Part shown: positions 15,498-57,981 of the stretch, piece by piece | Position numbering within the stretch: position 1 is the first letter of the stretch | Layout of the letters: each line of letters starts with the position of its first letter | From: a bacterium | Lineage (GTDB): Bacteria > Zhuqueibacterota > Zhuqueibacteria > Oceanimicrobiales > Oceanimicrobiaceae | Assembly (NCBI GenBank): GCA_046757525.1 | Contig: JBHHYI010000001.1 | Span: forward strand, 106,723-170,722 | Direction: 5' to 3' | Length of the DNA stretch: 64,000 nt | The notes under the pieces: generated by a model | Seen by the model: only the letters and a program-made list of their open reading frames with translations | What the model was told of the DNA's origin: nothing | Databases searched by the model: none | Program-made: the position numbers and the translations under genes

Positions 15498-16298
15498 ATG
15501 GCAGCAATTATGGAAGAAAAATATACCATGGAGGGTTTAGAAACCTGTTTTGCAAGATTCAACGCCTCCATTGGTGATCTCCAAAAAGCTTACAACAAAA
15601 TCCAACAGCATCTGCATCACAGCGGGGATAGCCTGTCCCAGGAAACCCTGCTCTACATGTCACAGAACCTGGCGCACGGCATTCGCAATCCCCTTGGCGG
15701 CATTGGTAACCTATTGACTCTGCTTTCTCACGACTACGATCTGCAACAAACGGACAAAGTGCAGAGAATGCACGAGGGGATTGAGCGGATTGAGCGAATC
15801 ATCGCTAAACTCATTGAGTTTAGTTCGCCGGTGGGAACAAAAAAGAGACGCCACGAACTACAAGAGTTGGTTGACGCAGTTGTTCATTCTGTAAAACAGT
15901 CCTTGGATTCAAATCGGTCTGCGATTCAATTGTCTTTGAGAATGTGTAAGCGCGCCTTGCTGTTGGAAGCGGATGTCCCCAAGTTGACGCAGGCCCTGCA
16001 ACACATCGTACAAAACGCATTCGAAGCCATGCCGCACGGGGGCAAAATAAGCATCTGGCTGCGAGAAAGCAAAACGCCCAACTGCGCCGAATTGCTGATT
16101 TCAGATGAAGGCCCTGGAATCAAGGTGGATGAAATAGAGAGGTGCTTTGCACCATTTTACACCACGAAAGTCAATGGCATGGGGCTTGGTCTCCCTTTTG
16201 CCAGAAAGGTTTTTGAGAAGCACGGTGGAACCATGCTCTTAGAGAATAGAAAGCCAACCGGACTGAAAGTTAGAATCAAATTGCCAACTAAAAACTGA
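15498..16298 (+). CDS. Cytoplasmic sensor histidine kinase (HisKA + HATPase_c, no TM segments); FlgS/FleS/FlrB-like
   Basis: H-box HGIRNPLGGI. N and G boxes (…LISDEGPGI…, GMGLGLPFARKV). No hydrophobic helices. Sits directly upstream of a sigma-54 activator and flgB. Confidence 0.8.
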   Translation: MAAIMEEKYTMEGLETCFARFNASIGDLQKAYNKIQQHLHHSGDSLSQETLLYMSQNLAHGIRNPLGGIGNLLTLLSHDYDLQQTDKVQRMHEGIERIERIIAKLIEFSSPVGTKKRRHELQELVDAVVHSVKQSLDSNRSAIQLSLRMCKRALLLEADVPKLTQALQHIVQNAFEAMPHGGKISIWLRESKTPNCAELLISDEGPGIKVDEIERCFAPFYTTKVNGMGLGLPFARKVFEKHGGTMLLENRKPTGLKVRIKLPTKN

Positions 16299-16304
16299 AG
16301 GGCG

Positions 16305-17687
16305 GTGCAAATGAAAAAGATACTGGTTGTTGATGACGATCCTCTCATCGGCTTGTCCCTGAAAGAAGCCCTGAAAAGATGGGATTACGAGGTCACTCTG
16401 ATTAATGAAGGTAGCCGGGTAATAGATGCACTGCAAGGGCAAGGGTATGACATGGTTTTCACTGACATGCGCATGCCAAATGTGACAGGCATGGACGTGT
16501 TGGAAAAAGTGCAGCAGTTGTGCCCATCTACCGGCGTCATCATGATTACGGCCTATGGCAGCATCGCTCAGGCCGTGGAAGCCATGCAGAAAGGCGCCTT
16601 CGATTTCATAACCAAGCCCTATTCGCTCCAGAAAATCAAGGCGTGTTTGGACAAGTATTTCTGCATCGCAAAGAATCCGGACAGTGGCCAGGTTTCACGG
16701 GAGACCCGTCTCCCTGTCAAAACTCAGGAAAGATTTGTCGGGGAAAATGTAAGGGTGAAAGAATTGTTCAGGACCCTGGAGATGGCTTATCATAGCGATG
16801 CGCCGGTGTTTATTCAAGGCGAAAGCGGCACCGGCAAAGAGCTCATCGCTGAGGCCATTCACTGCCAAAGTGCACGCAAGGAAAAACCGTACTTGAGAAT
16901 CAACTGTGCCGCGCTTCCGGAAAATCTGGTAGAAAGCCAGCTTTTTGGCCACGAGAAAGGGGCCTTTACCGGGGCCATTAAGACTTTTAAAGGGTTGTTT
17001 GAAGAAGCTGACGGTGGCACCTTGCTTTTGGATGAGATCACCGAAATGCCTCTGAATCTGCAAGCGAAGTTTCTGCGGGTCCTGCAAGAGGGGGAGTTCT
17101 CCAGAGTGGGCAGTACGCGTACCAGAAGAACAGATGTGCGCATTGTTGCGACGACCAACAGCGATGTGCAAGAAGCGATCGCGCAGGGCAGATTTCGTCA
17201 GGATTTGTACTACCGCCTGGCGGTCCTCTTCTTGCGGGTTCCCCCTTTGCGCGAACGAAAGGATGACATCCCTTTGCTATGTGAATACTTTCTCAAAAAG
17301 TATGGTGAGAAATATTCTAACAAGGTCAAAGGCATAGACCAGGAGGCTATTAGATTCCTCTCTCAACATGCATGGCCTGGCAATGTGCGCGAATTGGAAA
17401 ACATCATCCAGAGAAGTGTGTTGAGTTGTCGGAATGGAGAAGAGATCGGTCTGCAGCACGTTCAAGAGTTGCTAACCGTTGACGCAGCGGCCGGAGGTGA
17501 ACGCTTGGGCTGCAACGAAGACCTGAGCCTGGAAGAAATGGAAAAGCGGCTAATCGCGGCGACGTTGCAAAGATACCGATTTCACAAAACCAGGACCGCG
17601 GAAATCCTGGGGGTTACACTGAAAACTTTGAGAAACAAAATTCTTCAATATGGTCTGGAAACCGTACCCGTAAAAACTACCACTTGA
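16305..17687 (+). CDS. Sigma-54-dependent response regulator (NtrC family; FlgR/FleR/FlrC-like flagellar activator)
   Basis: REC domain (VVDDDP…FTDMRMP), AAA+ domain with GESGTGKE and the GAFTGA motif, and a C-terminal Fis-type HTH. Confidence 0.9.
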   Translation: MQMKKILVVDDDPLIGLSLKEALKRWDYEVTLINEGSRVIDALQGQGYDMVFTDMRMPNVTGMDVLEKVQQLCPSTGVIMITAYGSIAQAVEAMQKGAFDFITKPYSLQKIKACLDKYFCIAKNPDSGQVSRETRLPVKTQERFVGENVRVKELFRTLEMAYHSDAPVFIQGESGTGKELIAEAIHCQSARKEKPYLRINCAALPENLVESQLFGHEKGAFTGAIKTFKGLFEEADGGTLLLDEITEMPLNLQAKFLRVLQEGEFSRVGSTRTRRTDVRIVATTNSDVQEAIAQGRFRQDLYYRLAVLFLRVPPLRERKDDIPLLCEYFLKKYGEKYSNKVKGIDQEAIRFLSQHAWPGNVRELENIIQRSVLSCRNGEEIGLQHVQELLTVDAAAGGERLGCNEDLSLEEMEKRLIAATLQRYRFHKTRTAEILGVTLKTLRNKILQYGLETVPVKTTT

Positions 17688-17825: not shown

Positions 17826-17842
17826 CTGGCATATTAGTTGCC
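17826..17842 (+). promoter_or_regulatory. Sigma-54 (-24/-12) promoter for flgB: CTGGCATATTAGTTGC
   Basis: GG at 17828-29 and GC at 17840-41, the canonical 10-nt spacing. Lies 32 nt upstream of the flgB ATG. Confidence 0.7.
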
Positions 17843-18808: not shown

Positions 18809-19093
18809 GTGAGCACGATTAAACCCGCGGTATTCCCCAACATCAGCCGCCATGCCGTCAATCGGCCAAACGAGCACGCGGACATCCTAAGGTCTGGCAA
18901 CGCCAGGGAAGTCGAACCAGGAAAGTCGGCCGTTCGTCACGACGCGTCAGGTTCGATTGAAGACAGGCGTGGTGCCGAACCATTAAACCAAACCAGGACA
19001 GCAGAAGGGAAAACGATCAAGTTTTATCGACCCAACAAAGTCAAGATTCAAAAACCGGTGGTGCTGGGAACGTACATCGACATCAAAGTGTGA
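18809..19093 (+). CDS. Hypothetical 94-aa protein inserted between flgC and fliE
   Basis: GTG start with GGAGAA 7 nt upstream. Exactly fills the flgC-fliE gap. Not recognisably similar to anything. Confidence 0.35.
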   Translation: MSTIKPAVFPNISRHAVNRPNEHADILRSGNAREVEPGKSAVRHDASGSIEDRRGAEPLNQTRTAEGKTIKFYRPNKVKIQKPVVLGTYIDIKV

Positions 19094-30516: not shown

Positions 30517-31308
30517 ATGGATAAGTCAACTGTTATTGGAATCGTTGCTGGCATGCTCCTTTTGGGCATCTCCCTTTTCATGGGCACAGGGTGGCAGATG
30601 TTTTTCAGCTTGCCTTCTTTTCTCATCGTGGTTGGAGGCACCATAGCTGCCACATTGGTCAATTTTCCTTTGAACGATGTAATTAGTGTCATGAAAATAA
30701 CCCAAAAGGTGCTGCTGCACAAGTCAATTGCTCCGGAAACCTACATCGAGAGGATTGTGCAGTTGGCAAAAAAGGCAAGATCCAACGGCCTGTTAGCCAT
30801 CGAGCAGGATTTAGATGAGATCGACATGGATTTCTTGAAGTCAGGGTTGCAACATGTCATCAATGGCGCGGAGCCCGAAGACCTTCGCAATATCTTGGAG
30901 ATGGATCTTTATGTGATGACCAAAAGGCATGATATCGGACAAAAAATGTTTCTCGCCATGGGGACCTACGCGCCCGCCTTTGGTATGATTGGGACATTAA
31001 TAGGTCTGATCAAGATGTTGCAAAGTTTGGAGGACCCTACTGGAATCGGTCCCGGCATGGCCCTGGCCATGGTAACGACTTTTTATGGCGCACTGCTTGC
31101 CAATCTCTTTTTCCTGCCAATGGCCGGGAAATTAAAACATCGCTCCGGAGAAGAGACCATTTTCAAAGAGATGTTGTTGCAGGGCATACTGTCCATGCAA
31201 GCCGAAGAATCGCCAAGAGTAATCAAGAACAAGCTGTTAACTTACCTGGCGCCTAATACGAGAAATAACGGGAAGCACGCAGAAAAAGAGGTAAAGACCA
31301 GTGAGTGA
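30517..31308 (+). CDS. motA: Flagellar stator protein MotA (MotA/TolQ/ExbB family)
   Basis: 263 aa. Four TM helices and the conserved C-terminal channel region. Confidence 0.85.
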   Translation: MDKSTVIGIVAGMLLLGISLFMGTGWQMFFSLPSFLIVVGGTIAATLVNFPLNDVISVMKITQKVLLHKSIAPETYIERIVQLAKKARSNGLLAIEQDLDEIDMDFLKSGLQHVINGAEPEDLRNILEMDLYVMTKRHDIGQKMFLAMGTYAPAFGMIGTLIGLIKMLQSLEDPTGIGPGMALAMVTTFYGALLANLFFLPMAGKLKHRSGEETIFKEMLLQGILSMQAEESPRVIKNKLLTYLAPNTRNNGKHAEKEVKTSE

Positions 31309-32005
31309 TCGGAAAAACAACTGCAATTGTGAAGAAGACGATACCCCGTCGTCGCCAGCGTGGATGACCACCTACGGTGACATGATGACTCTGCTGATGA
31401 CGTTTTTCATCTTGATCATGTCATTTTCGTCGATTCAAATCGACAAGTTCAAGGCGGCCATGGGCTCGTTGCAGGGGGCTTTTGGTGTATTAGGCCACTC
31501 CAAAGAGGTCAACGTGGACCGCAGTTGGTTTTCTCCCTTCATGGTCGATATGAAAAGAGAGAAGATATTGAACCAGGTAGACAACTTGCGGGAACTGCTT
31601 GAAAAAAACAATTTGGAAGATTCTATTGAATTATCTGGATCGGATACGGAGGTGACCATCCGCTTCAAAGACCACATTCTCTTTCCCTCCGGGGGGGCAG
31701 AGTTAAAGCCGTCATTTTTGCCCATATTCAAGAAAATCACTCGCATCATCATAAAGGGTGCAGGAGAAGTCAAAGTAGAAGGACATACCGATAATCTCCC
31801 AATTCACACCAGCCAATATCCGTCTAATTGGGAATTATCAATTGCCCGGGCGCTGAGCGTGCTCAGATATCTGGTACAGGAAGAAGGCCTCAATCCGACA
31901 AAGCTTTCTGCAGCGGGATTCAGCCAATTTCGTCCTTTAGTTCCTAACAATTCTCCCGATAATCGTGCCAAAAACAGAAGGGTAGAAATTCATCTGAGAT
32001 GGTGA
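31301..32005 (+). CDS. motB: Flagellar stator protein MotB (OmpA-like C-terminal domain)
   Basis: N-terminal TM with a conserved Asp (…TYGDMMTLLM…). C-terminal OmpA/MotB peptidoglycan-binding domain. Confidence 0.85.
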   Translation: MSDRKNNCNCEEDDTPSSPAWMTTYGDMMTLLMTFFILIMSFSSIQIDKFKAAMGSLQGAFGVLGHSKEVNVDRSWFSPFMVDMKREKILNQVDNLRELLEKNNLEDSIELSGSDTEVTIRFKDHILFPSGGAELKPSFLPIFKKITRIIIKGAGEVKVEGHTDNLPIHTSQYPSNWELSIARALSVLRYLVQEEGLNPTKLSAAGFSQFRPLVPNNSPDNRAKNRRVEIHLRW

Positions 32006-33014: not shown

Positions 33015-33533
33015 ATGAACAAGAAAAGAGGCCTTACCCTTGTCGGGGTGATTTTTTTTTTGTTGGCTTTGCTCATCGGGATGTACAAATTGGAGGCGCA
33101 GCTCGCTGACAAAAATCGAGAAGAAGGTGCCAAACCTCAAGTAGTACAACCTTCGCAGGCTCCTCAAAATGATTCTTGCTCCGATCCAGGTTATCTGTTG
33201 CTTAAAGCAGCCGCACTCATTGTCATATTCTCGGTGGTCCTTTATTTCCTGTTGAGAAGCAGCAAGAACTTTATTTTCACCAAAACGTTTGCTGGGAGTT
33301 CGTCGGGAATCCAGATTAAGGGAAGCAAGATAATAGGTCCGCACAAATGGCTTTATATCGTTGACGTACTTGGCCATATCCTGCTTTTGGGAGTTACCGA
33401 AAAGCAGGTTACCGTGCTTTTGGATATGCCTTTTGAGAACCTGAGCGAAGAAGAAAAAAGATTGTGGAACGACGAAGTAAAAACTTCAGAACCAAACTTC
33501 AAGAAGCTTTTGCATCATTGGCTTAGGAAGTAG
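33015..33533 (+). CDS. fliO: Flagellar biosynthesis protein FliO (FliZ-like)
   Basis: 172 aa, single N-terminal TM, position before fliP. Confidence 0.6.
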   Translation: MNKKRGLTLVGVIFFLLALLIGMYKLEAQLADKNREEGAKPQVVQPSQAPQNDSCSDPGYLLLKAAALIVIFSVVLYFLLRSSKNFIFTKTFAGSSSGIQIKGSKIIGPHKWLYIVDVLGHILLLGVTEKQVTVLLDMPFENLSEEEKRLWNDEVKTSEPNFKKLLHHWLRK

Positions 33534-34595: not shown

Positions 34596-35381
34596 ATGCT
34601 CAACGAAATATTAGCACTGTCGAATCAACAATTCGTCGCTTTTTTTTTGGCCTTTTTGCGTATATTGGCGCTGATTTTTGTTGCACCAATTTTAGGCTCC
34701 AGGTCGATTCCAATTCAAAGCAAGATTTTTTTTGCGATGTTTTTGTCGATTTGTGTTTGGCCGCTGATCAAGAACCAGCCAGTGACGCCGAATTTAGAGT
34801 TGACCGCGCTGACCTTTCTGTCGGCGCGGGAAGTATTGTTGGGGTTGTTCTTTGGGTACAATGCCAAGCTGATCTTCGAGGGTTTTCAGTTTGCAGGTCG
34901 ATTGATTGGAAATCAAATGGGGTTAGGAGTTGCCGAGTTAATAGACCCGGAGAGCGGTGTACAGGTCTCTTCAATAGGCAACTTCTATAACCTCATCGGT
35001 GTTGTTCTTTTCTTAACGCTGAACGGGCATCACTACCTTCTCACGGCGCTGTACAAAAGCTTCGAGATAGCCCCGGTGGGTTCAGGCCGATTGGTGAGTG
35101 TTCTCGCAAAAGAGCGACTGCTGTCGAATTTTGACGACATTTTCACCGTTGCCATTAAGCTTGCGGCGCCATCGATGGCCGTTTTGTTTCTTATTGAAGT
35201 CGGCATGGGAATTTTAGCAAGGATTGTTCCGCAAATGAATATATTTTTTATCGGGTTACCCGTTAGACTCGGGTTAGGGATGTTCATTCTCGTGGCTTCA
35301 CTCCCGATGTTTTATATTCTTTTCCAGACTATTCTTAAAGCATGGCAAGGAAAAGTCACTGGTTTAATGCTGCTATTTTAG
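34596..35381 (+). CDS. fliR: Flagellar biosynthesis protein FliR
   Basis: 261 aa, polytopic membrane protein after fliQ. Confidence 0.85.
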   Translation: MLNEILALSNQQFVAFFLAFLRILALIFVAPILGSRSIPIQSKIFFAMFLSICVWPLIKNQPVTPNLELTALTFLSAREVLLGLFFGYNAKLIFEGFQFAGRLIGNQMGLGVAELIDPESGVQVSSIGNFYNLIGVVLFLTLNGHHYLLTALYKSFEIAPVGSGRLVSVLAKERLLSNFDDIFTVAIKLAAPSMAVLFLIEVGMGILARIVPQMNIFFIGLPVRLGLGMFILVASLPMFYILFQTILKAWQGKVTGLMLLF

Positions 35382-35392
35382 GAGTAATCATC

Positions 35393-36283
35393 ATGGAATT
35401 AATTATTGAAGAATTAGATTCTAAGCTCATTGGGAAGAAATTAGGGCAAAACCTCTACAATTCAAAGGGGAGCCTGCTGTTGCGCAAGGGGGCAGAAATC
35501 GAGATGTTGCATTTTGCCCATCTCAAGAGTCTGGGTTACCAGAGTGTCTATGTGCTCAATGGTAATTCCGCAGATTTGGACCAGGATGGGGAAATTATTT
35601 CCGGGCACCTGCGTGCGAAGGGGCCGCACGAGCTCAAAGGCATCTTTAGAAAGTTGCTGACGGATGACAGAAGACAGATTGCAACCGCGAAAAAAGAGGT
35701 TTTCGTGTTAGCGGAAAATATACTCAAATCAGTTAATTTGAAAAAGCACGAGGGATCGAAGATCCTGGACTTAAAAAGACAGGGGGATTATCTCTGTCAA
35801 CATTCAATCAATGTGGCTGCTTACTCAATCCTCATCGGCACCTGTCTGTCCTACCATCAGTTGAAATTGTCTGATTTGGCCGTGGCAGCTTTATTGCACG
35901 ATTTTGGCATGCTATTCATAGACGAATCGCTGTTAAATAAGTCGACGGCACTAACTGAAAGCGAATCAGAATTAATCAAAGAGCACACGGTAAAGGGCTT
36001 TCAACACCTGGGCCGCAATTGTTCCTTTAAAGGCCTGGTTACGGTCGTGGCCTTGCAACATCATGAACGCTACGATGGCCTTGGTTATCCCAAAGGTTTA
36101 GTCGGCGAGGAACCGCACGAATTTTCGCGTATCGTTGCCCTGGCCAATTTTTTTGACGCGTACACCTCAGACCGACCCTATCGCCGCATGCATACCATTG
36201 ACGCTGCGTTGCAGGTCATTCAAGATGAAGTGGGCACGGCATTTGATCCTAACCTGGTGCAGCATTTCTTGAAGTATTTCTAA
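35393..36283 (+). CDS. HD-GYP domain protein (putative c-di-GMP phosphodiesterase) embedded between fliR and flhB
   Basis: HD motif …LLHDFGM… and HHERYDGLGYP (the GYP signature). Start trimmed to ATG 35393 (MELIIEEL…), which has an AGGAG box. Confidence 0.75.
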   Translation: MELIIEELDSKLIGKKLGQNLYNSKGSLLLRKGAEIEMLHFAHLKSLGYQSVYVLNGNSADLDQDGEIISGHLRAKGPHELKGIFRKLLTDDRRQIATAKKEVFVLAENILKSVNLKKHEGSKILDLKRQGDYLCQHSINVAAYSILIGTCLSYHQLKLSDLAVAALLHDFGMLFIDESLLNKSTALTESESELIKEHTVKGFQHLGRNCSFKGLVTVVALQHHERYDGLGYPKGLVGEEPHEFSRIVALANFFDAYTSDRPYRRMHTIDAALQVIQDEVGTAFDPNLVQHFLKYF

Positions 36284-40694: not shown

Positions 40695-40889
40695 GTGAAC
40701 AAGTTTATCCTCAAATTCAGTTTGTTTGTGGCAATCCTTACCCTGGTATGTTGCATGATATCCAGTATCTCGTTGCAGGAAAGCCTCTTCAGAGCCCTGT
40801 TGGTCTTTGCCGGTGCGTATGCCGTTCTCGTTGCCTTTTTCATAGGGCTTAAGCTCATTCTAAATGCCAAACAAACTAAAAGGAGCTGA
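40695..40889 (+). CDS. Small (64 aa) two-helix membrane protein occupying the position normally held by flhG; translationally coupled to fliA
   Basis: GTG start. Two hydrophobic helices. Its stop overlaps the fliA ribosome-binding site. Confidence 0.4.
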   Translation: MNKFILKFSLFVAILTLVCCMISSISLQESLFRALLVFAGAYAVLVAFFIGLKLILNAKQTKRS

Positions 40890-40891
40890 AA

Positions 40892-41659
40892 TTGGAAAGT
40901 GAAGAGTTGGTTAAGGCCTACAAGAGAAACCCTGAGCCTGAACTGCGGGAACAAGTGGTGGTTCAGTTTCTGCCAATTGTGAAATATGTCATCGGCCGAA
41001 TGCATTTGACGGTCAAGAACAAAGCTGAGATAGAAGACATCCATAGCGCTGGAATTTTGGGGCTGCTCCATGCCCTCGAAGATTTTGACGTGGCCAGAAA
41101 CACGAAATTCAAGACTTACGCGACCTGGAGAGTGCGCGGCTTTATTCTGGATTATTTGCGGCAAATTGATTTCCTGAGTAGAACCGATCGGGCCAAGATT
41201 CGGGCCATTGAAAGAGTGATCGCCGAGCTGACCCAGAAATACGGTCGCGAGCCTTCCAACCAGGAAATAGCCCAGGAAATAGACGTGGACCTGACAGAAT
41301 TCAATCGCTTGCTGGAATTGACCCAGTTGAATTTCATCGTCCCGTTTGACCAAAAACAGGCGCTGAACGACGAGCAAATAACCTTGAGCGAAGTCATTGC
41401 CGATGAATCCAATGAAGGCCCGTTCGAACAATCCAGTAAAAGTGATCTTTTGAATCTGGTAAAAGAGGCCATCGGCAACTTGCCAGAACGGCTCAGGCTC
41501 ATCGTTCTCATGTATTACAACGACGAAATGACTTTGGCAGAGATCGGAAAGGTCTTGTGTCTTTCTGAGTCTCGGGTGAGCAGACTGCTCGGGAAAGCCT
41601 TGCTTTCCATTCGTCAGGAAATCCTCGAAATCAATGTTCCAAGCAAAGTTCCCATTTAG
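40892..41659 (+). CDS. fliA: Flagellar sigma factor FliA (sigma-28)
   Basis: TTG start with AAAAGGAG 6 nt upstream. Sigma-70 region 2 (…YATWRVRGFILDYLR…), region 3 and region 4 HTH (…MTLAEIGKVLCLSESRVSRL…). Confidence 0.9.
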   Translation: MESEELVKAYKRNPEPELREQVVVQFLPIVKYVIGRMHLTVKNKAEIEDIHSAGILGLLHALEDFDVARNTKFKTYATWRVRGFILDYLRQIDFLSRTDRAKIRAIERVIAELTQKYGREPSNQEIAQEIDVDLTEFNRLLELTQLNFIVPFDQKQALNDEQITLSEVIADESNEGPFEQSSKSDLLNLVKEAIGNLPERLRLIVLMYYNDEMTLAEIGKVLCLSESRVSRLLGKALLSIRQEILEINVPSKVPI

Positions 41660-41676: not shown

Positions 41677-41946
41677 ATGTCCGATTTGGTGATTCCCAGG
41701 AATTTACCAAACGCCAATCCCATCGACAAGGTTGAACAAACCCAAAAGTCGCAACAAAACGACGAGCAGAAAAAAACAGACCAGGACAAGCGCAACAAGA
41801 AGCGTCATAAACAACAGAAAGCTCCGGAACAAGACCAGGACCGCGTCTTCATCTCATCACCCACTGCGGTTACAAAAGCCCGTAAGCAGGGAAAAAAAGG
41901 GCCCAAAAAGCTGGGCAAAGGGGACATAATAGATATTCAAGTATGA
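41677..41946 (+). CDS. Hypothetical small basic (K/Q-rich) protein downstream of fliA
   Basis: 89 aa, ATG with GGAAGG upstream. Its stop overlaps the next start (ATGA). Confidence 0.4.
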   Translation: MSDLVIPRNLPNANPIDKVEQTQKSQQNDEQKKTDQDKRNKKRHKQQKAPEQDQDRVFISSPTAVTKARKQGKKGPKKLGKGDIIDIQV

Positions 41947-43004
41947 ATTGTGCGTTTCACAGAATGATGGCCTATTTGGCACTTCCCGTTTGGACCTTGT
42001 GTTCTTGCGCAGTTGGCGCCAGAGGTGCAGAGCTTTTGGACATCCGCACCGGGTTTCACCAGTCTTACTCGCGGTTGGTCCTGCAGTTTGATTCAAAGGT
42101 AAACTACGAGGTGTCAAAGGAGCTCGAGGAGGGCAAGATCGCGGTTAACCTTCAGCCGGTGACAATCACCTCGGATTTTGGACCAACCCCGGTGGAAGCC
42201 GATGACCTGTTTTTGCGACAAGTCCATTACAGACATTCTTCACACCGGCTAACGGTGACGTTATTGTTGAGAACCTCGAACATCCGGTTGGTTGAATACA
42301 CTTTGGAAAGACCGTACCGGCTGGTCATCGACCTGCACCAGGGCAATTTCTCTGAAGAACTGAAGCAGGACAGCTCGTTCGTTCCTCCTGCACCTGCGGC
42401 TCCGGAAATGCCAGTGGCAACCGACTCGTCTTCTTTAACACTGATAGACACGCTCAAGGATAGCGAAGCCACTCTGCACACAAGCGAGATTCTTTTGAAC
42501 CATCCTCCAATGAAAAGCTCGGTTCAAATCGGGCCCCGTGGCAGCAGAATCCGTATGTTTCTGGGGGTCACAATCATTCTTGTCTTAATAGATATTTTGA
42601 TCTTTCTTTTTTACAAGATAAGGAAGAGCCGAATCCACAACTCTTCGGAAGATTCAAAAAAAACACAAACAACGGTCGCGCGCCCCGGGGCTGAAGCCAA
42701 CCCCCACTTCAAAGCCGTGTTGGGTATGATGGTGAAAGATGAGCACACCCACAAGACCAGTGTCGCCGATTTCCGAAAGGCAAATGGTCAGCAGGCTGCG
42801 GACCTGTCGGCCCGACTTGAATCTTTGTCCAGAGTGCTCTTTTCAGGACGTTCCGCTACCCGTCTCGGTCTCGATCCTGAGGACCTCAGTGAGGGCATGG
42901 GAGAGTTGGAAGCTGCTTCAGGCATCCCCAAGGAATTCTGGATCGGTCGAGATGGCATCGAGTTTGTCAACAACATCAAGAAACTCAACATGAACATGAA
43001 TTGA
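41943..43004 (+). CDS. Membrane protein with an N-terminal periplasmic AMIN domain, a Pro-rich linker, one TM helix and a ~140-aa cytoplasmic tail
   Basis: Signal-like N-terminus. AMIN-like region …YSRLVLQFDSKVNYEV…HRLTVTLLLRTSNIRLVEYTLERPYRLVIDLHQ. TM helix MFLGVTIILVLIDILIFLFYKI. Confidence 0.5.
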   Translation: MNCAFHRMMAYLALPVWTLCSCAVGARGAELLDIRTGFHQSYSRLVLQFDSKVNYEVSKELEEGKIAVNLQPVTITSDFGPTPVEADDLFLRQVHYRHSSHRLTVTLLLRTSNIRLVEYTLERPYRLVIDLHQGNFSEELKQDSSFVPPAPAAPEMPVATDSSSLTLIDTLKDSEATLHTSEILLNHPPMKSSVQIGPRGSRIRMFLGVTIILVLIDILIFLFYKIRKSRIHNSSEDSKKTQTTVARPGAEANPHFKAVLGMMVKDEHTHKTSVADFRKANGQQAADLSARLESLSRVLFSGRSATRLGLDPEDLSEGMGELEAASGIPKEFWIGRDGIEFVNNIKKLNMNMN

Positions 43005-43142: not shown

Positions 43143-43159
43143 CTGGCACATTAGTTGCG
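43143..43159 (+). promoter_or_regulatory. Sigma-54 (-24/-12) promoter for flgF: CTGGCACATTAGTTGC
   Basis: Same core as the flgB promoter (CCTGGCA[C/T]ATTAGTTGC). GG/GC spacing is 10 nt. Lies 30 nt upstream of the flgF ATG. Confidence 0.7.
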
Positions 43160-43189: not shown

Positions 43190-43936
43190 ATGTTAAAAGG
43201 ACTTGAATTGACGGGCCGTTCAATGGCGACGAGAATGGCTCAAATGGACGCGATCACCAACAATCTGGCAAATATTAGCACCAGGGGTTTTAAGAGAGAC
43301 ATGGTGTTTATTCACAGCGTTGCTGAAAACCTGCGCCAGATTGACCGAAAGGACGGCTCCGTTCAGCACCGAACTGTTGCGTCCACTACTCTGGACTTGA
43401 CCCAGGGTAGTTTGGTGGGTACGGAACGGCCTCTGGATCTGGCCATCTCGGGTGACGGCTTTTTCGTGGTTGAGACTTCCGAGGGCGCGGCCTACACTCG
43501 AAACGGGCAATTCACGCTGAATGCAGAGGGGGTCTTGACCACTTTAGACGGGAAGGTTGTTTTGGGCGAAGGGGGCGCCATTGAAATAAACATCGATCAA
43601 AAAACACCAAATCAGATTCTAATCAATGAGCAGGGAGAAATTCTGCTCGATGGCAACCTGATAGACAAATTGCAGATTGTAGCCCCGGAAAATCCGAACA
43701 AGCTGCTTAAGGCGGGTGCTAATCTTTTCAAGTTGGCAGATGAGACCACTTCCATGCAGCCGGTCGAGTTGGTTTCGGTGAAACAGGGCTTTCTCGAAGA
43801 ATCCAATGTCAACCCAATGTTGGAAATGATTGCCATGATGGAAAACTTGCAGCACTTTCAAATGGATCAGAAGATCATCAAGACAGAAGATGAAATGCTG
43901 GGCCGTGCTGCAAACAACATCGGAAGGGTGACCTAA
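43190..43936 (+). CDS. flgF: Flagellar basal-body rod protein FlgF
   Basis: Trimmed to ATG 43190 (MLKGLELTGRSM…). N-terminal and C-terminal rod domains. Confidence 0.8.
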   Translation: MLKGLELTGRSMATRMAQMDAITNNLANISTRGFKRDMVFIHSVAENLRQIDRKDGSVQHRTVASTTLDLTQGSLVGTERPLDLAISGDGFFVVETSEGAAYTRNGQFTLNAEGVLTTLDGKVVLGEGGAIEINIDQKTPNQILINEQGEILLDGNLIDKLQIVAPENPNKLLKAGANLFKLADETTSMQPVELVSVKQGFLEESNVNPMLEMIAMMENLQHFQMDQKIIKTEDEMLGRAANNIGRVT

Positions 43937-50946: not shown

Positions 50947-51555
50947 ATGGATAAAAATAAGACACTGAATCATGGTCAGGAGAAGATGTTAGAAGGCACC
51001 GCTCTGTTGCACCAGGGTGAATTGGAGCGAGCCCGAGAAAGCTATGCGAAAACTCTGGGGGGTGAACCTGAGAATCTCGAGGCCCTGTACGGAATTGGGA
51101 TGATTCACCAGCAGAGGAACGAATTTACGTCTGCCAGAGAATATTTTGAGAAGGCCTTGCAATGCGACGCAAACAATTCCCACCTGTTGAACAGCTTCGG
51201 GGTGGTGTCGGCCCATTTGGGCGACCGCGAGGCAGCCATTCATTCCTTTGAGAAAGCCATAGAATTGGACCCGGCTTTTGTCCAGGCAGAAAGAAACCTG
51301 GCCGAAATCTATATTGATTCAGGAGAATTTGAAAGGGGCGTAAAGCATTACATGGAAGCCTTGAAAAGGGATCCAGGAGATGTGGACACCTTGCTGGCCA
51401 TCGCGGAGCTTTATTTTGAAATCGGTGACTTTGAGTCAACAGAATTCATTCTCAAGCGAGTCCTGGAAATAGACCCTGAGAACGAATTCGCCAGAGAAGC
51501 CATCAAAATAAATTCAGCTAAGCTCGCCGCGCTTAGCCAGGTTGGACCGGAATAA
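50947..51555 (+). CDS. TPR-repeat protein
   Basis: 202 aa made of tandem TPR units. Confidence 0.7.
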   Translation: MDKNKTLNHGQEKMLEGTALLHQGELERARESYAKTLGGEPENLEALYGIGMIHQQRNEFTSAREYFEKALQCDANNSHLLNSFGVVSAHLGDREAAIHSFEKAIELDPAFVQAERNLAEIYIDSGEFERGVKHYMEALKRDPGDVDTLLAIAELYFEIGDFESTEFILKRVLEIDPENEFAREAIKINSAKLAALSQVGPE

Positions 51556-53272
51556 ACACCGGGTCGAGTTGCAGGTTACGGCTAAAATGAGAGGCAGCAA
51601 AAAAGAGATCGTAAGGCTCTTCAGGACGAACCAGGTGGAGCAGGCTTACCTGAGAGCAAAAGCTCTTTTGACGGAATTCCCCGCTGACTATGAGCTGCAT
51701 TACATCCTGGGCATGATCCATGGTTCGCAGTACCGCTATGTCGACGCCTTGCAATCCTTTAGTCGGGCCCTGACTTTCAACCCAGGGCACAGGCCGTCGC
51801 TGACCGAACGGGGCATTATTTTTATGACGCTCAGACGGGATCGCCAGGCCCTGGCCGAGTTTCGTGAAGCGCTCAGAGTCGATCCTCTTGCGCACGACGT
51901 CTGTCATTATGTCCGTGAAATCGAAAGACGAATGAAGCCAGTGGAGCCGACCCTTGCCGCCTGTCTCATCGTAAAAAATGAAGCAAAACACCTGCCTAAC
52001 TGCTTGAAGAGTATTCAGGCTGTGGTGGACGAGATGGTGGTGGTAGACACCGGCTCTGAAGATGCCACTCCAGAAATCGCACGGCAATTCGGCGCCCGGG
52101 TCGTGCAGTTTGAGTGGCGGAAGGATTTCGCTGCTGCCAGAAATTTTGCCATAAGACAGGCTGAGAGCGATTGGATTTTGCAAATAGATGCGGACGAAGA
52201 GCTGTTTCCCGAAGACCAATACAAGATTCGTGAGATCATCCACCAGAGGGATTGTAACGGGGCCTTTGTAGCAATGAGAAATAGAAACTCGAGCCTGTTT
52301 GGCGAGAACCCGTGCACGGTTCACTACCTGGTGCGCCTCTACCGCAACCACAGATCGATCTATTATGTCAATCCCATTCATGAAACGTTGAAGATATCCG
52401 GTGAGGTTGTTGCCACCGACATCAATTTCCTGCATCACGGCTATAATTTGGACGCCGAGTACATGAAGCAGAAACGACGGCGAAACGCCGAGATCCTGTA
52501 TCAAAGGTTGCAATCTGACCCGAGCAACATTACCACCCTGTTTTATCTTTCCATGATGCATTTGGGCAATGAAGAATATGACCAGGCTGGAATCTACGCA
52601 AAGCAGGTCCTGGAGAAGCTGAGTCCCCAGGACGCGAAGAAGCAGCATTTTTATTTGATGATGCTCAACAATCTGGCCTGGATTCATGTAGAAAAGCAAA
52701 ACTATGCGTTGGTGCAGAAATACTGCGAGCAGGCCATTGCTATAAACAGCAATTACTTAGATCCCCAATTCTTTTTAGGCCTGAGCTATTTTAAGGAGGA
52801 ACAGTATGAGAAAGCCAGGGAGACCTTTGAAAGATTCCTGAAGAAATATGGAGAGATCACACAAAACCCTGTGTTTAATTTGTTTGCCCATTCGTCTCAT
52901 GCCTATTTGTACCAGGTTTATCACCTCCTGGGCAAGATATCTCGAAGAGAAAAGAACTATCCCGTGGCGCAAAGGATGATGTTGAAGGCGATCGAGAGCA
53001 ACCCCAATTTCTGGATCGGGTATGCGGACCTGGGTTACCTAAGCATGGACCTGAGCGAGTGGCAAAAAGCTGCTCACTATTTGTCGACGGCCGTCAGCAT
53101 TGCGAAAAAGAGCCCGCACGTCAACAGGAACAATAGAGTCGTTTGGTTTGATTTTTTTAACCTGTTGAAGAATTATGTTGCGGTGCTAAAAAAATGTGCC
53201 GGCGCGGCAAAAGCGGCTCCTGTTAGCGTATCTTCAACCGTGCGCCAAGAATCAAATGCTGAACAGAGTTAG
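51542..53272 (+). CDS. Glycosyltransferase family 2 domain fused to TPR repeats (paralog 1)
   Basis: GT2 motifs …CLIVKNEAKHLPNCLKSIQAVVDEMVVVDTGSEDAT…ILQIDADEELF…. The start is uncertain (TTG 51542 or ATG 51587). Confidence 0.75.
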   Translation: MDRNKHRVELQVTAKMRGSKKEIVRLFRTNQVEQAYLRAKALLTEFPADYELHYILGMIHGSQYRYVDALQSFSRALTFNPGHRPSLTERGIIFMTLRRDRQALAEFREALRVDPLAHDVCHYVREIERRMKPVEPTLAACLIVKNEAKHLPNCLKSIQAVVDEMVVVDTGSEDATPEIARQFGARVVQFEWRKDFAAARNFAIRQAESDWILQIDADEELFPEDQYKIREIIHQRDCNGAFVAMRNRNSSLFGENPCTVHYLVRLYRNHRSIYYVNPIHETLKISGEVVATDINFLHHGYNLDAEYMKQKRRRNAEILYQRLQSDPSNITTLFYLSMMHLGNEEYDQAGIYAKQVLEKLSPQDAKKQHFYLMMLNNLAWIHVEKQNYALVQKYCEQAIAINSNYLDPQFFLGLSYFKEEQYEKARETFERFLKKYGEITQNPVFNLFAHSSHAYLYQVYHLLGKISRREKNYPVAQRMMLKAIESNPNFWIGYADLGYLSMDLSEWQKAAHYLSTAVSIAKKSPHVNRNNRVVWFDFFNLLKNYVAVLKKCAGAAKAAPVSVSSTVRQESNAEQS

Positions 53273-53287
53273 AAAATTGGAGTGCCA

Positions 53288-54709
53288 ATGGAATATGGCT
53301 TCAAGCATGGGAAGCCCACCCTTTCGCTTTGCATGATCGTCAAGAACGAGGCAAGGTACCTGGAGGCGTGTCTCAAAAGTGTGGCAGATTTGGTGGATGA
53401 AATCATCGTGGTCGACACCGGGTCCACCGACGCTACTTTGGACATTGCTCGAAGATTCAAGGCAAGAATCTACCATTACCCGTGGACCCAAGACTTCGCA
53501 GCCGCGCGCAATGAAAGCCTCAAACACGCCACAAGCGACTGGATCCTCTATTTGGATGCCGACGAGCGATTGGAAGCCAGGAGCAAGCGTGAGTTGCTTG
53601 GGCTTTTGAGAAACAAATCCATTCTGTGTGTCAATGTACTGATCGATAGCCCGCTTAGGGACTCCAGGAAAGGACACATCAGTCGGTCGCACCGCTTGTT
53701 CCGCAACTTACCCGGGATCAGATTCTCTGGCCGAGTCCATGAACAGATTTCGCCTTCGATCGCCGGGTTAAAAGGGAAAGAATGTTTTTCTACCATCAGG
53801 CTGAAGCATCTGGGCTACGCAAAGGACGCGCCTGAGATGTCGAAGAAAAGCCGCCGCAATTATGAGCTGCTGCAACTGCAAATCAGGGACGAGCCAGTCA
53901 ATGCCTACTGGCATTTCAGTTTGGCACAGAATCAGATTCTGAGCCAAAAATACCGGGAGGCCAGGGAATCGCTCGGCATCGCCTTAAGAATTGGCGGCCT
54001 GCCGGAAGACATTTTATGCTCCATTTACAACAATCTGTCGGAAGTTCATCTCAAATTGGCAAAACTCGACGAGGCCATAAGCTACGCTGAAAGAGCTCTG
54101 TCGATAACGCCGAATCAATGTACAGCGCACCTGCTGCTATTTCAGATTTACCAAACTCAGGGCAACAAGAAAAAACAACTCGAGTCACTGGAGGCAGCCG
54201 TCGGAGTTGTAGAGGGGCAGAAGACCGGGCAGCAAAAAGTCTCGGTGGAAGCGTATGTGGATCGGGCGGCACTCTACGTCAGTTTGGCAGGGCTTTATTT
54301 GCAAGAGAACCGCGTTGCGGAGGCCCGCGGTTATTTCCAAAGAGCCTTGCGGATCGATCCGGACAATGTCAGCGCATTGAACGGCCTGGCGGATTGTTTA
54401 TTAGAGGAAAGGAGATTCATTGAAGCCAGCAAAATCCTGGAGCATCTCGATTTGGTCAGTCCGGAAGATTTAGCAAGGAAGGAAAAGCTGGCCTGGCTTG
54501 CGATCAAGTTGGGCAATTACCCGAGAGCCATCGAGATTTACAAACATCTCCTTGAAATAGAACCGCACAATGTTGTCTTGAACAGACAGATGGCCGCCTT
54601 ATGCCACAAGATTGGCTTGACCGCCCAGGCCAGGAGGTATCTTGCCAAAGCAAAACGTCATTCCCATAGCTCTGTTGCATCCGAGACGACTGCGCAGGTC
54701 CTGCCTTAA
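53288..54709 (+). CDS. Glycosyltransferase family 2 domain fused to TPR repeats (paralog 2)
   Basis: ATG 53288 with GGAG 6 nt upstream. …LCMIVKNEARYLEACLKSVADLVDEIIVVDTGSTDAT…LYLDADERLE… closely parallels the preceding gene. Confidence 0.75.
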   Translation: MEYGFKHGKPTLSLCMIVKNEARYLEACLKSVADLVDEIIVVDTGSTDATLDIARRFKARIYHYPWTQDFAAARNESLKHATSDWILYLDADERLEARSKRELLGLLRNKSILCVNVLIDSPLRDSRKGHISRSHRLFRNLPGIRFSGRVHEQISPSIAGLKGKECFSTIRLKHLGYAKDAPEMSKKSRRNYELLQLQIRDEPVNAYWHFSLAQNQILSQKYREARESLGIALRIGGLPEDILCSIYNNLSEVHLKLAKLDEAISYAERALSITPNQCTAHLLLFQIYQTQGNKKKQLESLEAAVGVVEGQKTGQQKVSVEAYVDRAALYVSLAGLYLQENRVAEARGYFQRALRIDPDNVSALNGLADCLLEERRFIEASKILEHLDLVSPEDLARKEKLAWLAIKLGNYPRAIEIYKHLLEIEPHNVVLNRQMAALCHKIGLTAQARRYLAKAKRHSHSSVASETTAQVLP

Positions 54710-55050: not shown

Positions 55051-57981
55051 ATGGCTAAAACACGCTACTTTTTAATTGCGGTGATTGTTGCGTTTTCGCT
55101 GTTTTTCTTGCACCAGGAAACACGTGCGCAGTCCACTTATGTTGGCACGGAGACGTGCAACAATTGCCACGGCAAAGAAGCCAATTTTGCGGGCAATCAA
55201 TGGGCTACCTGGGTCAAGACCCGGCATAACATGAAATGGCGGGATCCTGACGAAGGGTTAGGCGTGGTTGCCCATGATTACTTCGTCAACAACCTGGATC
55301 TGTCTACGGATCCGGACTTCGCTGCTTTCGGGGCGAACGCGCCCAAGCTCAGCTTCGACCCCTCTGATCCGGCGGATTCCACCGACGGTAAGAGCGGCTA
55401 CCGCGTCACGGTTGGTGCCACAACCTACGAGGTGAACTGGACGCTGGGTGGTACCGGTGTCTGGAAACAGCGTTACATGACGGAGATTGGCAACAGCATC
55501 TACATTCTGCCCATTCAGTACAATGAAACAACCGACGACTGGGTGCCTTATCATCCCCCCACCTGGTATGACAGCAACAACCAGCCGTTGGCAGAGGTTC
55601 CCAAGGCGGACTCTTACCAACGCCGCTGTATCGGCTGCCACTCGGTCAATCCTGTGGTGAGCTTCAACGATAGCACTGGAGAGTGGACCGCCACGGTGAC
55701 CGAGCGCAATATTGGCTGCGAAGACTGCCACGGTCCCGGAAGTGAACACGCTCAAACCACGGACAAGACCAAGATCATAAATCCCGAAACCGATCTCACC
55801 AACAAAGACAGACGCCTGGAAGTCTGCGGCGCCTGCCACGGCCGCGGTTCCAGCACCGCCACTCTGGGCGGCAAAAACTTTGGCTTCCCTTACAACGATG
55901 CCAATGGCCACTATCGACCTGGCGAGGTATTGGCCGATTATTACAACCAAACGACGTCGTCTTCTAACTTTTGGCCCAATGAACAGCCTTACGGCCGGAA
56001 TTCCAAATCGCACCACCAACAATATCTCGACTTCTTGACCAGCGCCCATTACAGCAATCCGTTCGAGGAGATCAACTGCTGGACCTGTCACGATCCACAT
56101 GGGGGCACGGGCCAGGAGTTTCTAATCCGGGACAAGCTGGTGGAAGACGGCGTGGAGATCGCTACGACCAACGATGACAACACCCTTTGCCTGGCTTGTC
56201 ACGCGGAATTCGAGCCCTTCGATCTGATTAGCAAAGAAATGGTAGCAGACCCCACGGGAGCCAATTTGGAAACCATCAAAGCCGTGGTAGAAACTCACAC
56301 GAAGCATCCTTATGATCCTACGGGCACTGGGGCCAGTAGGTGCACCAAGTGCCACGATCCAAAGGTCGCCAAGTCGGCGATCGAATACGACATCCATTCC
56401 CACTCCTTTTGGGTGATGTCCCCGGAACAAACGCTTACCTATCAGCCTGAAGGCGGGGTGCCAAATTCCTGTGCGGTGAGCTGCCACAGAAAGGCCGAGT
56501 TCCCGAATTTTGGCATGGACCTGTCTGGCGACGTTCTCAAGACCTGGACAGAATCTACCGATATCGCCCTGGCCGATACTCTGCAACGCTTTTTGGGTGC
56601 TGGAGGCTATTGGTGGGATACGGATCCGTCTGGCAACATGGGTGATCCCCTGTTGGTCAAGCGGGTCGATACCATGCCAACCATCGATGGTGACGATTCC
56701 GATGCGGCCTGGGCCGGCGCACAAGAAACGACCCTGGCCAACGGTGCTACCATCAAGGCTGTGAACAATTCGGACATGGTGGCCTTTTTGGTCAAGTGGA
56801 GCGATCCTACCATGAGCATGACGCGCGGCGGCTCCTGGCAGTGGGTGAGCGGCGCCTGGGTTAAAACCAATGCCACGGAAGAAGGCGGTGCTAATGAAGA
56901 TCGCTTCAACATCTTGTGGAACATCAACATAAGTGAATTTGGCCAGAGAGGCTGTGCCACCAAATGTCATGGTCAGGAAGGCAATGCCACAGGGGCTTAC
57001 CTGGATAAAGTGGGCGAATATGCCGACATGTGGCACATGAAGGCCTCACGGGCTCTGCCCGCGATCAGCTCTTCACAATCCGACAATTTGACTTTCAGCA
57101 CTTCTGACGCGACCGACCAGCATCAGGTGACCAGCGGAACCATCATTCTCAACGGTTACGCCGACGACAAACTCACGGCAGCCCGACTGGATCCGGCTTA
57201 CCCATTCGATCCGGAGGACGGCGGACGTCATGGTGACAGCGGCACGGCCATGTTTCGCCACAACCGCAACTCCGACAAAACCGCTCCCATGTACATTGAA
57301 ACCGCACCAACCAACTACATCGACGGCATGGTGCTCTACCAGTCGGAAATTGACAACGGTGAAGCGGTGGAAGTTGCCAGTTTATCTACCCAGCAGATCG
57401 ACCAGGCCTGGGCGGCGTACGCTGCGGTCAACGCAGTGGTGCCTGAGCGGATCATGCAACAGCCGGCTGGCAGCCGCGGCGATGTGCGGGAAGCGGCAAA
57501 ATGGGAAAACGGCCAGTGGACCGCAGAATATGAACGCGCCCTGGTGACTAACAACGTCGACGACGTCCAATTCGACGACTTGACCAAGGGCTACCTCTTT
57601 GGAACGTCTATCATGGACAACTCGGGTGGCGATAAGCACAACATCTCTGCGCGCTTAAATGAATTGCGCTTCGACGAGTTTGTTGGCATCGAAACGCCCG
57701 GCGCCGACAATCTGCCATCCCAGTATGCGTTGTTGCAAAACTATCCCAATCCATTCAATCCCACGACCAAAATACGCTTTACCCTCAGGAAAAGTGGATT
57801 GGTGAAGCTTAGAGTTTTCAACATGTTAGGTCAGCAGGTCAAAACGCTGGTCTATCAGCAACTTCCGGCCGGTCAGTATGAGGTTCCATTTGATGCGTCG
57901 CAATTCTCTTCCGGTTTGTATTTGTACAGACTTGAAGTGAACGGTTTCACGCAGGTGAAAAAAATGGTGTTGGCCAAGTAA
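55051..57981 (+). CDS. Secreted multiheme cytochrome c (7 CXXCH + 2 CX3CH) with a type IX secretion system C-terminal sorting domain
   Basis: Signal peptide MAKTRYFLIAVIVAFSLFFLHQETRAQS. Heme motifs CNNCH, CIGCH, CEDCH, CGACH, CWTCH, CLACH, CTKCH, CAVSCH and CATKCH. C-terminal …NYPNPFNPTTKIRFTL…YLYRLEVNGFTQVKKMVLAK, the Por_Secre_tail signature. Confidence 0.85.
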   Translation: MAKTRYFLIAVIVAFSLFFLHQETRAQSTYVGTETCNNCHGKEANFAGNQWATWVKTRHNMKWRDPDEGLGVVAHDYFVNNLDLSTDPDFAAFGANAPKLSFDPSDPADSTDGKSGYRVTVGATTYEVNWTLGGTGVWKQRYMTEIGNSIYILPIQYNETTDDWVPYHPPTWYDSNNQPLAEVPKADSYQRRCIGCHSVNPVVSFNDSTGEWTATVTERNIGCEDCHGPGSEHAQTTDKTKIINPETDLTNKDRRLEVCGACHGRGSSTATLGGKNFGFPYNDANGHYRPGEVLADYYNQTTSSSNFWPNEQPYGRNSKSHHQQYLDFLTSAHYSNPFEEINCWTCHDPHGGTGQEFLIRDKLVEDGVEIATTNDDNTLCLACHAEFEPFDLISKEMVADPTGANLETIKAVVETHTKHPYDPTGTGASRCTKCHDPKVAKSAIEYDIHSHSFWVMSPEQTLTYQPEGGVPNSCAVSCHRKAEFPNFGMDLSGDVLKTWTESTDIALADTLQRFLGAGGYWWDTDPSGNMGDPLLVKRVDTMPTIDGDDSDAAWAGAQETTLANGATIKAVNNSDMVAFLVKWSDPTMSMTRGGSWQWVSGAWVKTNATEEGGANEDRFNILWNINISEFGQRGCATKCHGQEGNATGAYLDKVGEYADMWHMKASRALPAISSSQSDNLTFSTSDATDQHQVTSGTIILNGYADDKLTAARLDPAYPFDPEDGGRHGDSGTAMFRHNRNSDKTAPMYIETAPTNYIDGMVLYQSEIDNGEAVEVASLSTQQIDQAWAAYAAVNAVVPERIMQQPAGSRGDVREAAKWENGQWTAEYERALVTNNVDDVQFDDLTKGYLFGTSIMDNSGGDKHNISARLNELRFDEFVGIETPGADNLPSQYALLQNYPNPFNPTTKIRFTLRKSGLVKLRVFNMLGQQVKTLVYQQLPAGQYEVPFDASQFSSGLYLYRLEVNGFTQVKKMVLAK

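Follow-up and report, generated by a model that had tools for sequence, protein, structure and literature searches.

A lineage-restricted AMIN-domain membrane protein and its small partner encoded directly behind fliA in a flagellar gene cluster

The two proteins discussed in this report are p353, a membrane protein with a predicted AMIN domain, and p89, a small protein encoded immediately in front of it. Their genes lie in a 64,000-nucleotide stretch of the bacterial contig JBHHYI010000001.1 (positions 106,723 to 170,722), which we call the window and within which all coordinates below are counted from the first letter. The window holds a nearly complete flagellar supercluster, and NCBI lists p89 and p353 as hypothetical proteins of a metagenome-assembled genome (MAG), ACE5HO_00845 and ACE5HO_00850. 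AMIN domains were recognized as recurrent additions to flagellar proteins only in 2024-2025, in FliO, MotK, and PflA. To our knowledge, the flagella of the phylum that bears p353 have not been studied.

Several described systems share a domain, a layout, or a gene position with p353. FliO of Campylobacterota, Nitrospinota, Myxococcota, and other groups consists of a periplasmic AMIN domain, a transmembrane (TM) helix, and a cytoplasmic beta core, and the AMIN domain of Campylobacter jejuni FliO is needed to keep FlhB stable (PMC12403147). MotK of the Fla2 flagellum of Cereibacter sphaeroides is a periplasmic protein that combines an AMIN domain with tetratricopeptide repeats (TPR) and binds MotB2 and MotE (PMC10954123). 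The same combination of AMIN and TPR is found in PflA of C. jejuni and Helicobacter pylori, which forms the spokes of the scaffold (PMC11870540). The AMIN domains of PilQ, a component of a different machine, recruit the type IV pilus apparatus to future division sites (PMC5285504).

Polar placement and activation of the flagellum involve a further group of proteins. In gamma-proteobacteria, FipA (DUF2802) and HubP/FimV are polar determinants of FlhF (PMC11620751, PMC12918733). The gene for FipA, a membrane protein, follows immediately on the flhA-flhF-flhG-fliA-che operon, and FipA brings in FlhF by way of a conserved domain in the cytoplasm (PMC11620751); it occurs strictly together with FlhG (PMC11620751, PMC12918733). 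In Bacillus subtilis, swrB (ylxL) sits right after the sigma-28 gene sigD as the last gene of a large flagellar operon (PMC4526659), and its product spans the membrane once, has a large C-terminal part in the cytoplasm, and acts as an activator of flagellar type III secretion (PMC4526659; bioRxiv 10.1101/2021.04.30.442225).

The locus described here has traits of several of these systems. Our preferred reading, held tentatively and at a little below an even chance, is that p353 places or anchors the flagellar assembly site and would do so by tethering an early assembly component to peptidoglycan.

Domain architecture and conservation of p353

p353 (353 residues; 41943-43004, +) is an open reading frame (ORF) of a conserved family, and we describe its product as a bitopic inner-membrane flagellar accessory protein, in which a flexible linker of about 70 residues connects an AMIN domain outside to a TM helix and, beyond it, a tail inside the cell. 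The first-pass annotation had laid out the same succession, from a signal-like N-terminus through an AMIN domain and a Pro-rich linker to one TM helix and a cytoplasmic tail, and both hydropathy and the AlphaFold2 (AF2) model uphold it. Residues 1-27 (41943-42023, +) form a signal peptide or N-terminal anchor, with a hydropathy peak at residues 8-26 and R7 in the n-region, and a hydrophobic N-terminus is found across the family alignment. The AMIN domain occupies residues 28-134 (42024-42344, +; DIRTGFHxxYSRLVLQFD ... PYRLVIDL). Because a hydrophobic signal precedes this domain and a single TM helix follows it, the domain is predicted to be extracytoplasmic, in the periplasm.

Residues 135-203 (42345-42551, +) make up a Ser/Pro-rich, variable periplasmic linker with low conservation and predicted local distance difference test (pLDDT) scores of 45-62. 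The single TM helix follows at residues 204-228 (42552-42626, +), where Kyte-Doolittle hydropathy rises to 2.9 and a FxLxDxxLL pattern is conserved. Hydropathy places one strong helix at about residues 203-228, and AF2 draws a helix across this region at residues 199-232, with pLDDT of 81-89. The remaining 125 residues (229-353; 42627-43001, +) are assigned to a cytoplasmic helical tail on the basis of family alignments and AF2.

The AMIN assignment is sound at the level of the family and of the predicted fold, because Pfam matches within the family, the AF2 model, and the first structural match all point to it. Among 33 aligned relatives, 22 match the AMIN-like profile (PF24837; best 1.3e-8) and 15 match AMIN (PF11741; best 3.6e-8), and the weaker phmmer matches of p353 pass the Pfam AMIN threshold themselves (e.g., P0045, at 88.7 bits). 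The AF2 model built with the family alignment has an eight-strand beta-sandwich at residues 29-133 with pLDDT of 93-98, compared to a pLDDT of 42 when AF2 was run on the single sequence. Foldseek comparison of this model with the PDB gives Escherichia coli AmiC as the first match (4bin; E value of 9.4e-7, root mean square deviation of 2.9 Angstrom, 116 columns), followed by PilQ B2 (4aqz), and the list also includes the PflA N-terminal domain and C. jejuni periplasmic scaffold, with E values of 4e-3 to 8e-3.

The presence of PflA and the C. jejuni scaffold among the top structural matches speaks for a stator or periplasmic-scaffold anchor, like MotK in alpha-proteobacteria or PflA in Campylobacterota. 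Such an anchor would use its AMIN domain to attach to peptidoglycan close to the motor and would assist in recruiting or opening MotB, and a mutant would be flagellated but paralyzed. The p353 family profile also matches the N-terminal AMIN-like domain of an 819-residue protein in locus L019 (2849-5308, +; hhalign 94.6%, E value of 7e-8), which is encoded behind fliL, a MotE-like gene, and motA in an unrelated, high-GC, alpha-proteobacterial-looking flagellar locus. Pfam finds nothing in this 819-residue protein, which appears to fit the published description of MotK homologues (PMC10954123). However, the working surface of MotK and PflA is a long TPR region, whereas the periplasmic part of p353 beyond the AMIN domain is a variable, disordered linker; the conserved surface of p353 is cytoplasmic, and its gene is linked to flhF and fliA rather than to motAB (30517-32005). 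We judge a stator or scaffold anchor quite unlikely.

The strongest conservation lies at the other end of the protein. The tail has a basic stretch next to the membrane and helices with the patterns (D/E)F..L, K-I-D-x-x-I-x-S-L-S, and P-x-(F/L)-x-(E/D)-(I/V)-A, and AF2 places its helices at residues 254-265, 285-300, 312-326, and 330-352. It ends in the best conserved segment of the family, residues 326-353 (42918-43001, +), with the motif (E)-x-L-I-G-R-D-G-x-E-F-x-x-N-I-K-R-L-x-L-N, in which D337, G338, and F341 are nearly invariant in the family alignment. Mean pairwise identity reaches 44% over these last 28 residues, compared to 32% for the AMIN domain (28-134) and 12% for the linker (135-203), which is Ser/Pro-rich and ranges from 62 to 121 residues in length; it is 28% for the TM helix (204-228) and 21% for the mid-tail (253-325). 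Because the final 28 residues are better conserved than the AMIN domain and the linker, the functional core of p353 is predicted to lie in the cytoplasm. The tail has no significant relative in Pfam and none among PDB sequences.

Gene order, transcription unit, and the small protein p89

Word-indexed homology searches with p353 or p89 alone returned only each protein itself. An exhaustive HMMER search with p353 gave 94 relatives, of which 31 score at E<1e-10; most are 330-430 residues long and align from end to end. The metagenome profile scan for p353 used a 10-sequence subset of the 33 aligned relatives. The one member that appeared to lack an AMIN domain, P0076, is a gene cut by the end of its contig. 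Both p89 and p353 form families confined to one lineage: all members seen come from Calditrichota or unclassified MAGs, and they are always named "hypothetical."

Sixteen related loci, drawn from NCBI, ENA, JGI, and Logan assemblies, were compared with the window; a contig scan with FliA returned only distant sigma factors (Atribacterota and Poribacteria). Wherever the contig reaches, the order flhF, 2-TM mini-protein, fliA, p89, p353 is unchanged in the 16 loci, and the p353 proteins of the syntenic loci are only 20-35% identical. Most of these loci continue past p353 with a sigma-54 promoter and flgF-flgK. Locus L020 keeps fliA-p89-p353, after which, on the opposite strand, come fliT, a flgM-like gene, fliD, and fliS, and L021 keeps the same three genes and continues with non-flagellar ones. 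Because the downstream flgF block varies among relatives, we regard p89 and p353 as tied to fliA, closing the flhB-flhA-flhF-fliA operon. Both ORFs are thus real genes as first annotated, with position, length, and motifs conserved in 16 independent loci, and the link to the flagellar locus that had been drawn for them stands, since both an AMIN domain and synteny with flagellar genes are found in relatives.

These data bear directly on whether p89 and p353 might be a non-flagellar cell-envelope pair that is merely located in the cluster. AMIN-TM proteins with other short tails do exist outside flagellar loci, as in L023, but the position behind fliA is invariant in the 16 loci despite the sequence divergence, no p89 or p353 family member was seen in any other genomic context, and the spacing to fliA is tight, with no intervening terminator. 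A chance location of this kind is very improbable.

The L023 protein is of some interest in its own right. It has 258 residues and consists of an AMIN domain, a linker, a TM helix, and a short tail of a different kind. Its neighbors in this region (L023:8001-11306, +), which is outside any flagellar cluster, are a 106-residue ORF, a gene for a PilZ protein, and one for a ParA/MinD-like ATPase; the L023 protein may represent another AMIN-anchored positioning module.

The gene directly 5' of p89 is fliA (40892-41659, +), whose product scores 212 bits against the TIGR02479 FliA/WhiG model (cut-off, 189.6) and carries Sigma70 r2, r3, and r4, all three. The p89 start lies 17 nucleotides past the fliA stop and is preceded by a strong ribosome-binding site, AGGAAGGTGA; the ATG of p353 and the TGA of p89 share an ATGA, which confirms the overlapping start and stop codons reported for the pair. 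On the 3' side, the sigma-54 promoter of the flgF operon, TGGCACATTAGTTGC (43144-43158, +), is the sole exact TGGCAC-N5-TTGC match in the window; flgF probably starts at 43190, 46 nucleotides farther on. A TGGCA[CT]-N5-TTGC element is found 46-106 nucleotides upstream of flgF in 11 of the 11 related loci that include flgF, and the promoter marks the downstream boundary of the fliA-p89-p353 unit. The placement of the pair between fliA and this promoter, as originally described, is borne out on both sides.

The first-pass annotation went on to suggest a sigma-28-class flagellar or localization factor, and here the result is different. There is no convincing sigma-28 promoter for p89: the sole nearby site, at 41379, has 2 mismatches, and 9 other sites with 2 mismatches occur elsewhere in the window. 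Because the gap to fliA is only 17 nucleotides, no terminator is present between fliA and p89, and a convincing sigma-28 promoter is lacking, p89 and p353 look co-transcribed with flhB-flhA-flhF-fliA rather than FliA driven.

p89 (89 residues; 41677-41946, +) is identified as a gene from the ORF list, its ribosome-binding site, and homologues of 79-91 residues that occupy the same slot in every locus covering it. It is a small, largely low-complexity, mostly disordered cytoplasmic protein with conserved ends. The family shares the N-terminus M-x-D-(L/Y)-G-x-x-L-G-x-P, a lysine patch, a D-x-V-x-I-S motif, and the C-terminus K-G-x-x-I-D-I-x-V, immediately before the stop. The window member has an isoelectric point of 10.0, with 16 K and 12 Q, and so merits the label "basic" that it had been given, but the label does not extend to the family, in which net charge ranges from -3 to +13. 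A p89 profile run against 5.8 billion proteins recovered no more than 8 clusters, every one of them from the same lineage and labeled hypothetical. Eight members gave no meaningful Pfam match, and the profile matched no PDB chain at E<=10, FlgM structures included, in agreement with the earlier remark that p89 has no obvious family.

For p89, an analogue of the anti-sigma factor FlgM had been named as one possibility. Like FlgM, p89 is small and disordered, is encoded in a flagellar locus, and has a motif resembling D-x-V-x-(I/L)-S; unlike FlgM, it ends in a beta-like I-D-I-x-V and lacks the C-terminal amphipathic helices that bind sigma-28. PF04316 (FlgM) gave no match to the p89 family even at E<=10. 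A FlgM signal was seen only in a 115-residue protein of L020 (2133-2480, -), encoded beside fliT-like, fliD, and fliS genes and matching PF04316 with an E value of 3.9e-4 and 21 bits (cut-off, 25), and L020 carries p89 and p353 as well. hhalign of the p89 profile with this FlgM-like protein returns a probability of 1% over 15 columns, restricted to the D-x-V-x-I-S stretch. With no PF04316 or PDB match, this hhalign result, and a separate FlgM-like gene in L020, the reading of p89 as FlgM was set aside as unsupported; so was a FlgM-like tail of p353, which gave no FlgM signal.

In a wider sense, p89, the p353 tail, or both could still bind FliA as a lineage-specific anti-sigma or sigma-tethering device, and relief might come through export of p89 by flagellar secretion or through a wall or pole signal. 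Tight gene coupling is typical of sigma/anti-sigma pairs, and p89 starts 6-17 nucleotides past the fliA stop in 7 of the 8 loci measured (85 nucleotides in L021). In the window, flgM was not found in front of flgN (48111), and the D-x-V-x-I-S motif of p89 aligns with D-Q-V-E-I-S of the L020 protein. The shortness and low probability of that alignment, the absent FlgM-type helices, the lack of any PF04316, PDB, or tail signal, and the coexistence of p89/p353 with a FlgM-like gene in L020 all stand on the other side, and we give a FliA-binding device little credence.

A 94-residue ORF between flgC and fliE (18809-19093, +), with a good ribosome-binding site and no Pfam match, ends in ...GTYIDIKV-stop. 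A search of 4306 six-frame ORFs from the window and the related loci for the pattern G..[IVLF]D[IVL].[VIA]-stop finds it in p89 family members and in this ORF alone. When the ORF is compared with p89 as a candidate paralogue, the alignment is confined to the final 12 residues (hhalign E value of 0.01 and 4%; hmmsearch E value of 7), and the remainder shows no significant similarity.

Possible roles of the pair and the surrounding cluster

If p353 places or anchors the flagellar assembly site, its AMIN domain would fix the protein to peptidoglycan, probably at the septum or the new pole, by analogy with AmiC and PilQ. On the cytoplasmic side, an early component of flagellar assembly (candidates are FlhF, the export gate, and the MS/C ring) would be bound by the conserved tail, possibly with the help of p89 as an adaptor. 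p353 would in this way help to decide the site of the basal body or hold the basal body against the wall. Such a role would merge the functions of HubP/FimV, as a peptidoglycan-binding landmark, and of FipA, as a membrane partner of FlhF.

A second small gene belongs to the same conserved block. It lies between flhF and fliA and encodes a mini-protein of 64 residues with 2 TM segments (40695-40889, +). Homologues are found between flhF and fliA in every locus covering the interval (including L006-L015, L017, and L021); they are 40-59% identical over about 60 aligned residues, are annotated in relatives as 82-107 residues with an added acidic tail, and have no family match. The slot between flhF and fliA is the usual place of flhG. 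A search for MinD/ParA-type ORFs (KGGxGK[ST], deviant Walker A) found none in the 64-kb window or the scanned loci, though flhF is present, and flhG is absent next to flhF in the p353 lineage.

It is conceivable, though in our estimation rather unlikely, that the mini-protein, p89, and p353 together constitute a lineage-specific, FlhG-free system for placing or counting flagella. The AMIN domain would recognize septal or new-pole peptidoglycan, and FlhF (or FliA) would be captured at that site by the invariant C-terminal motif of p353, with p89 serving as a disordered adaptor. The wall remaining from the last division would in that case be coupled directly to flagellar assembly or to late gene expression.

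Several points weigh against p353 as a placing or anchoring protein. Peptidoglycan binding and septal preference of its AMIN domain are extrapolated from AmiC and PilQ. The AMIN domain named in the first-pass annotation holds at the family and fold level, as described above, but the window protein alone stays below the Pfam thresholds, with 17.8 bits for AMIN (PF11741; cut-off, 20.5) and 18.3 bits for AMIN-like (PF24837; cut-off, 27). The tail, which would have to contact the assembly component, is unlike DUF2802 of FipA, the FimV C-terminal domain, or other families, and 18 p353-family tails gave no DUF2802 match at E<=10. Finally, FlhG may still be encoded elsewhere in the genome.

The shared operon with flhB and flhA also suits a different partner, namely, the export apparatus, for which p353 could be an activator or chaperone resembling SwrB or AMIN-FliO. 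Brief contacts of the TM helix and tail with the MS ring, or with the type III export gate while it is still forming, would either stabilize the gate or make it secretion competent, and the AMIN domain would fix the assembly site to the wall. The position of the gene agrees with SwrB and the topology of the protein with AMIN-FliO. However, the window already has an ordinary FliO, encoded at 33015-33533 between fliN and fliP (PF04347, 1.6e-11); hhalign of the p353 family with this FliO gives a probability of only 1%, and the p353 tail is predicted to be helical rather than to form the beta-sheet core of FliO. We regard a role as export activator or chaperone as unlikely.

The supercluster around the pair begins with a histidine kinase gene, a gene for a sigma-54 activator, and a sigma-54-like site at 17827. 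It continues with flgB, flgC, the 94-residue ORF, fliE, fliF, fliG, fliH, fliI, fliJ, a YlxF-like gene, fliK, flgD, and flgE, and then with motA, motB, fliL, fliN, fliO, fliP, fliQ, fliR, and a gene of the HD_5 (HD-GYP) type. The next block consists of flhB, flhA, flhF, the 64-residue 2-TM ORF, fliA, p89, and p353, and the cluster closes, 3' of p353, with the sigma-54 promoter and flgF, flgG, flgA, flgH, flgI, flgJ, flgN, flgK, and flgL.

Some of these genes, and a few beyond them, deserve brief description. The histidine kinase (15498-16298, +) and the sigma-54-activating response regulator (16305-17687, +) lie directly 5' of the sigma-54-like site, TGGCATATTAGTTGC (17827-17841), and flgB; the arrangement resembles FlrBC/FleSR and implies a sigma-54 tier for the rod and hook genes. 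The HD_5 gene (35342-36283, +) is inserted between fliR and flhB and is present in all relatives with contigs that reach that far, which suggests that cyclic-di-GMP turnover is wired into the export-gate operon. Directly after flgL are genes for a TPR protein and two TPR-glycosyltransferase fusions (50947-54709, +), which possibly serve flagellin or sheath glycosylation. They are followed at 55051-57981 (+) by the gene for a 976-residue multihaem cytochrome that carries a C-terminal sorting domain for type IX secretion. This domain suggests that the DNA comes from the FCB group and, taken with relatives annotated as Calditrichota, from a Calditrichota-like organism.

Comparison with known flagellar and polar systems

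Among the described proteins, AMIN-FliO is the closest to p353 in topology: both have an AMIN domain at the N-terminus, in the periplasm, a single TM helix, and a portion in the cytoplasm, and both are encoded in an operon with export-gate genes. They differ in that the cytoplasmic part of p353 is a 125-residue helical tail in the AF2 model rather than an antiparallel beta-sheet core, and in that p353 sits after fliA and not beside fliP. PF04347 matched none of 33 family members, and with a separate FliO present in the window, p353 was rejected as a FliO.

MotK and PflA have in common with p353 an N-terminal AMIN-type beta-sandwich within a flagellum-specific protein. They are soluble periplasmic proteins whose long TPR regions contact the stator or scaffold, whereas p353 spans the membrane and has its conserved part in the cytoplasm. 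The p353 family has no TPR match, and with its TM helix and cytoplasmic tail, p353 is neither a MotK nor a PflA.

The resemblance to FipA lies in the membrane anchor, the conserved cytoplasmic region, and a gene position at the end of the flhA-flhF-...-fliA region. p353 is not a FipA, however, as judged by the missing match to DUF2802, which FipA carries in addition to an N-terminal TM helix, and by the absence of an FlhG-type ORF from the window and the scanned loci, in which FlhF is present. HubP/FimV joins a peptidoglycan-binding LysM domain in the periplasm, by way of a TM helix, to a long acidic cytoplasmic region that ends in a FimV TPR domain; p353 shares this overall layout alone, with no matches to LysM or FimV domains. 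SwrB, compared by position and topology only (PMC4526659), is likewise single-pass and encoded behind a sigma-28 gene; unlike p353, it has no periplasmic domain and no small partner, and its host is Gram positive.

If the tail of p353 does bind FlhF or the export gate, polar or site-specific flagellar assembly would be organized in this lineage without the usual set of FlhG, HubP, and FipA, and two families now labeled "hypothetical protein" would gain a name and a testable role. Beside FliO, MotK, and PflA, the p353 family forms a fourth, architecturally different case of an AMIN domain in a flagellar setting, in which a predicted wall-binding domain is connected across the membrane with a cytoplasmic motif that is new and strongly conserved, and which is always encoded with the small partner p89 at the end of the flhF-fliA operon.

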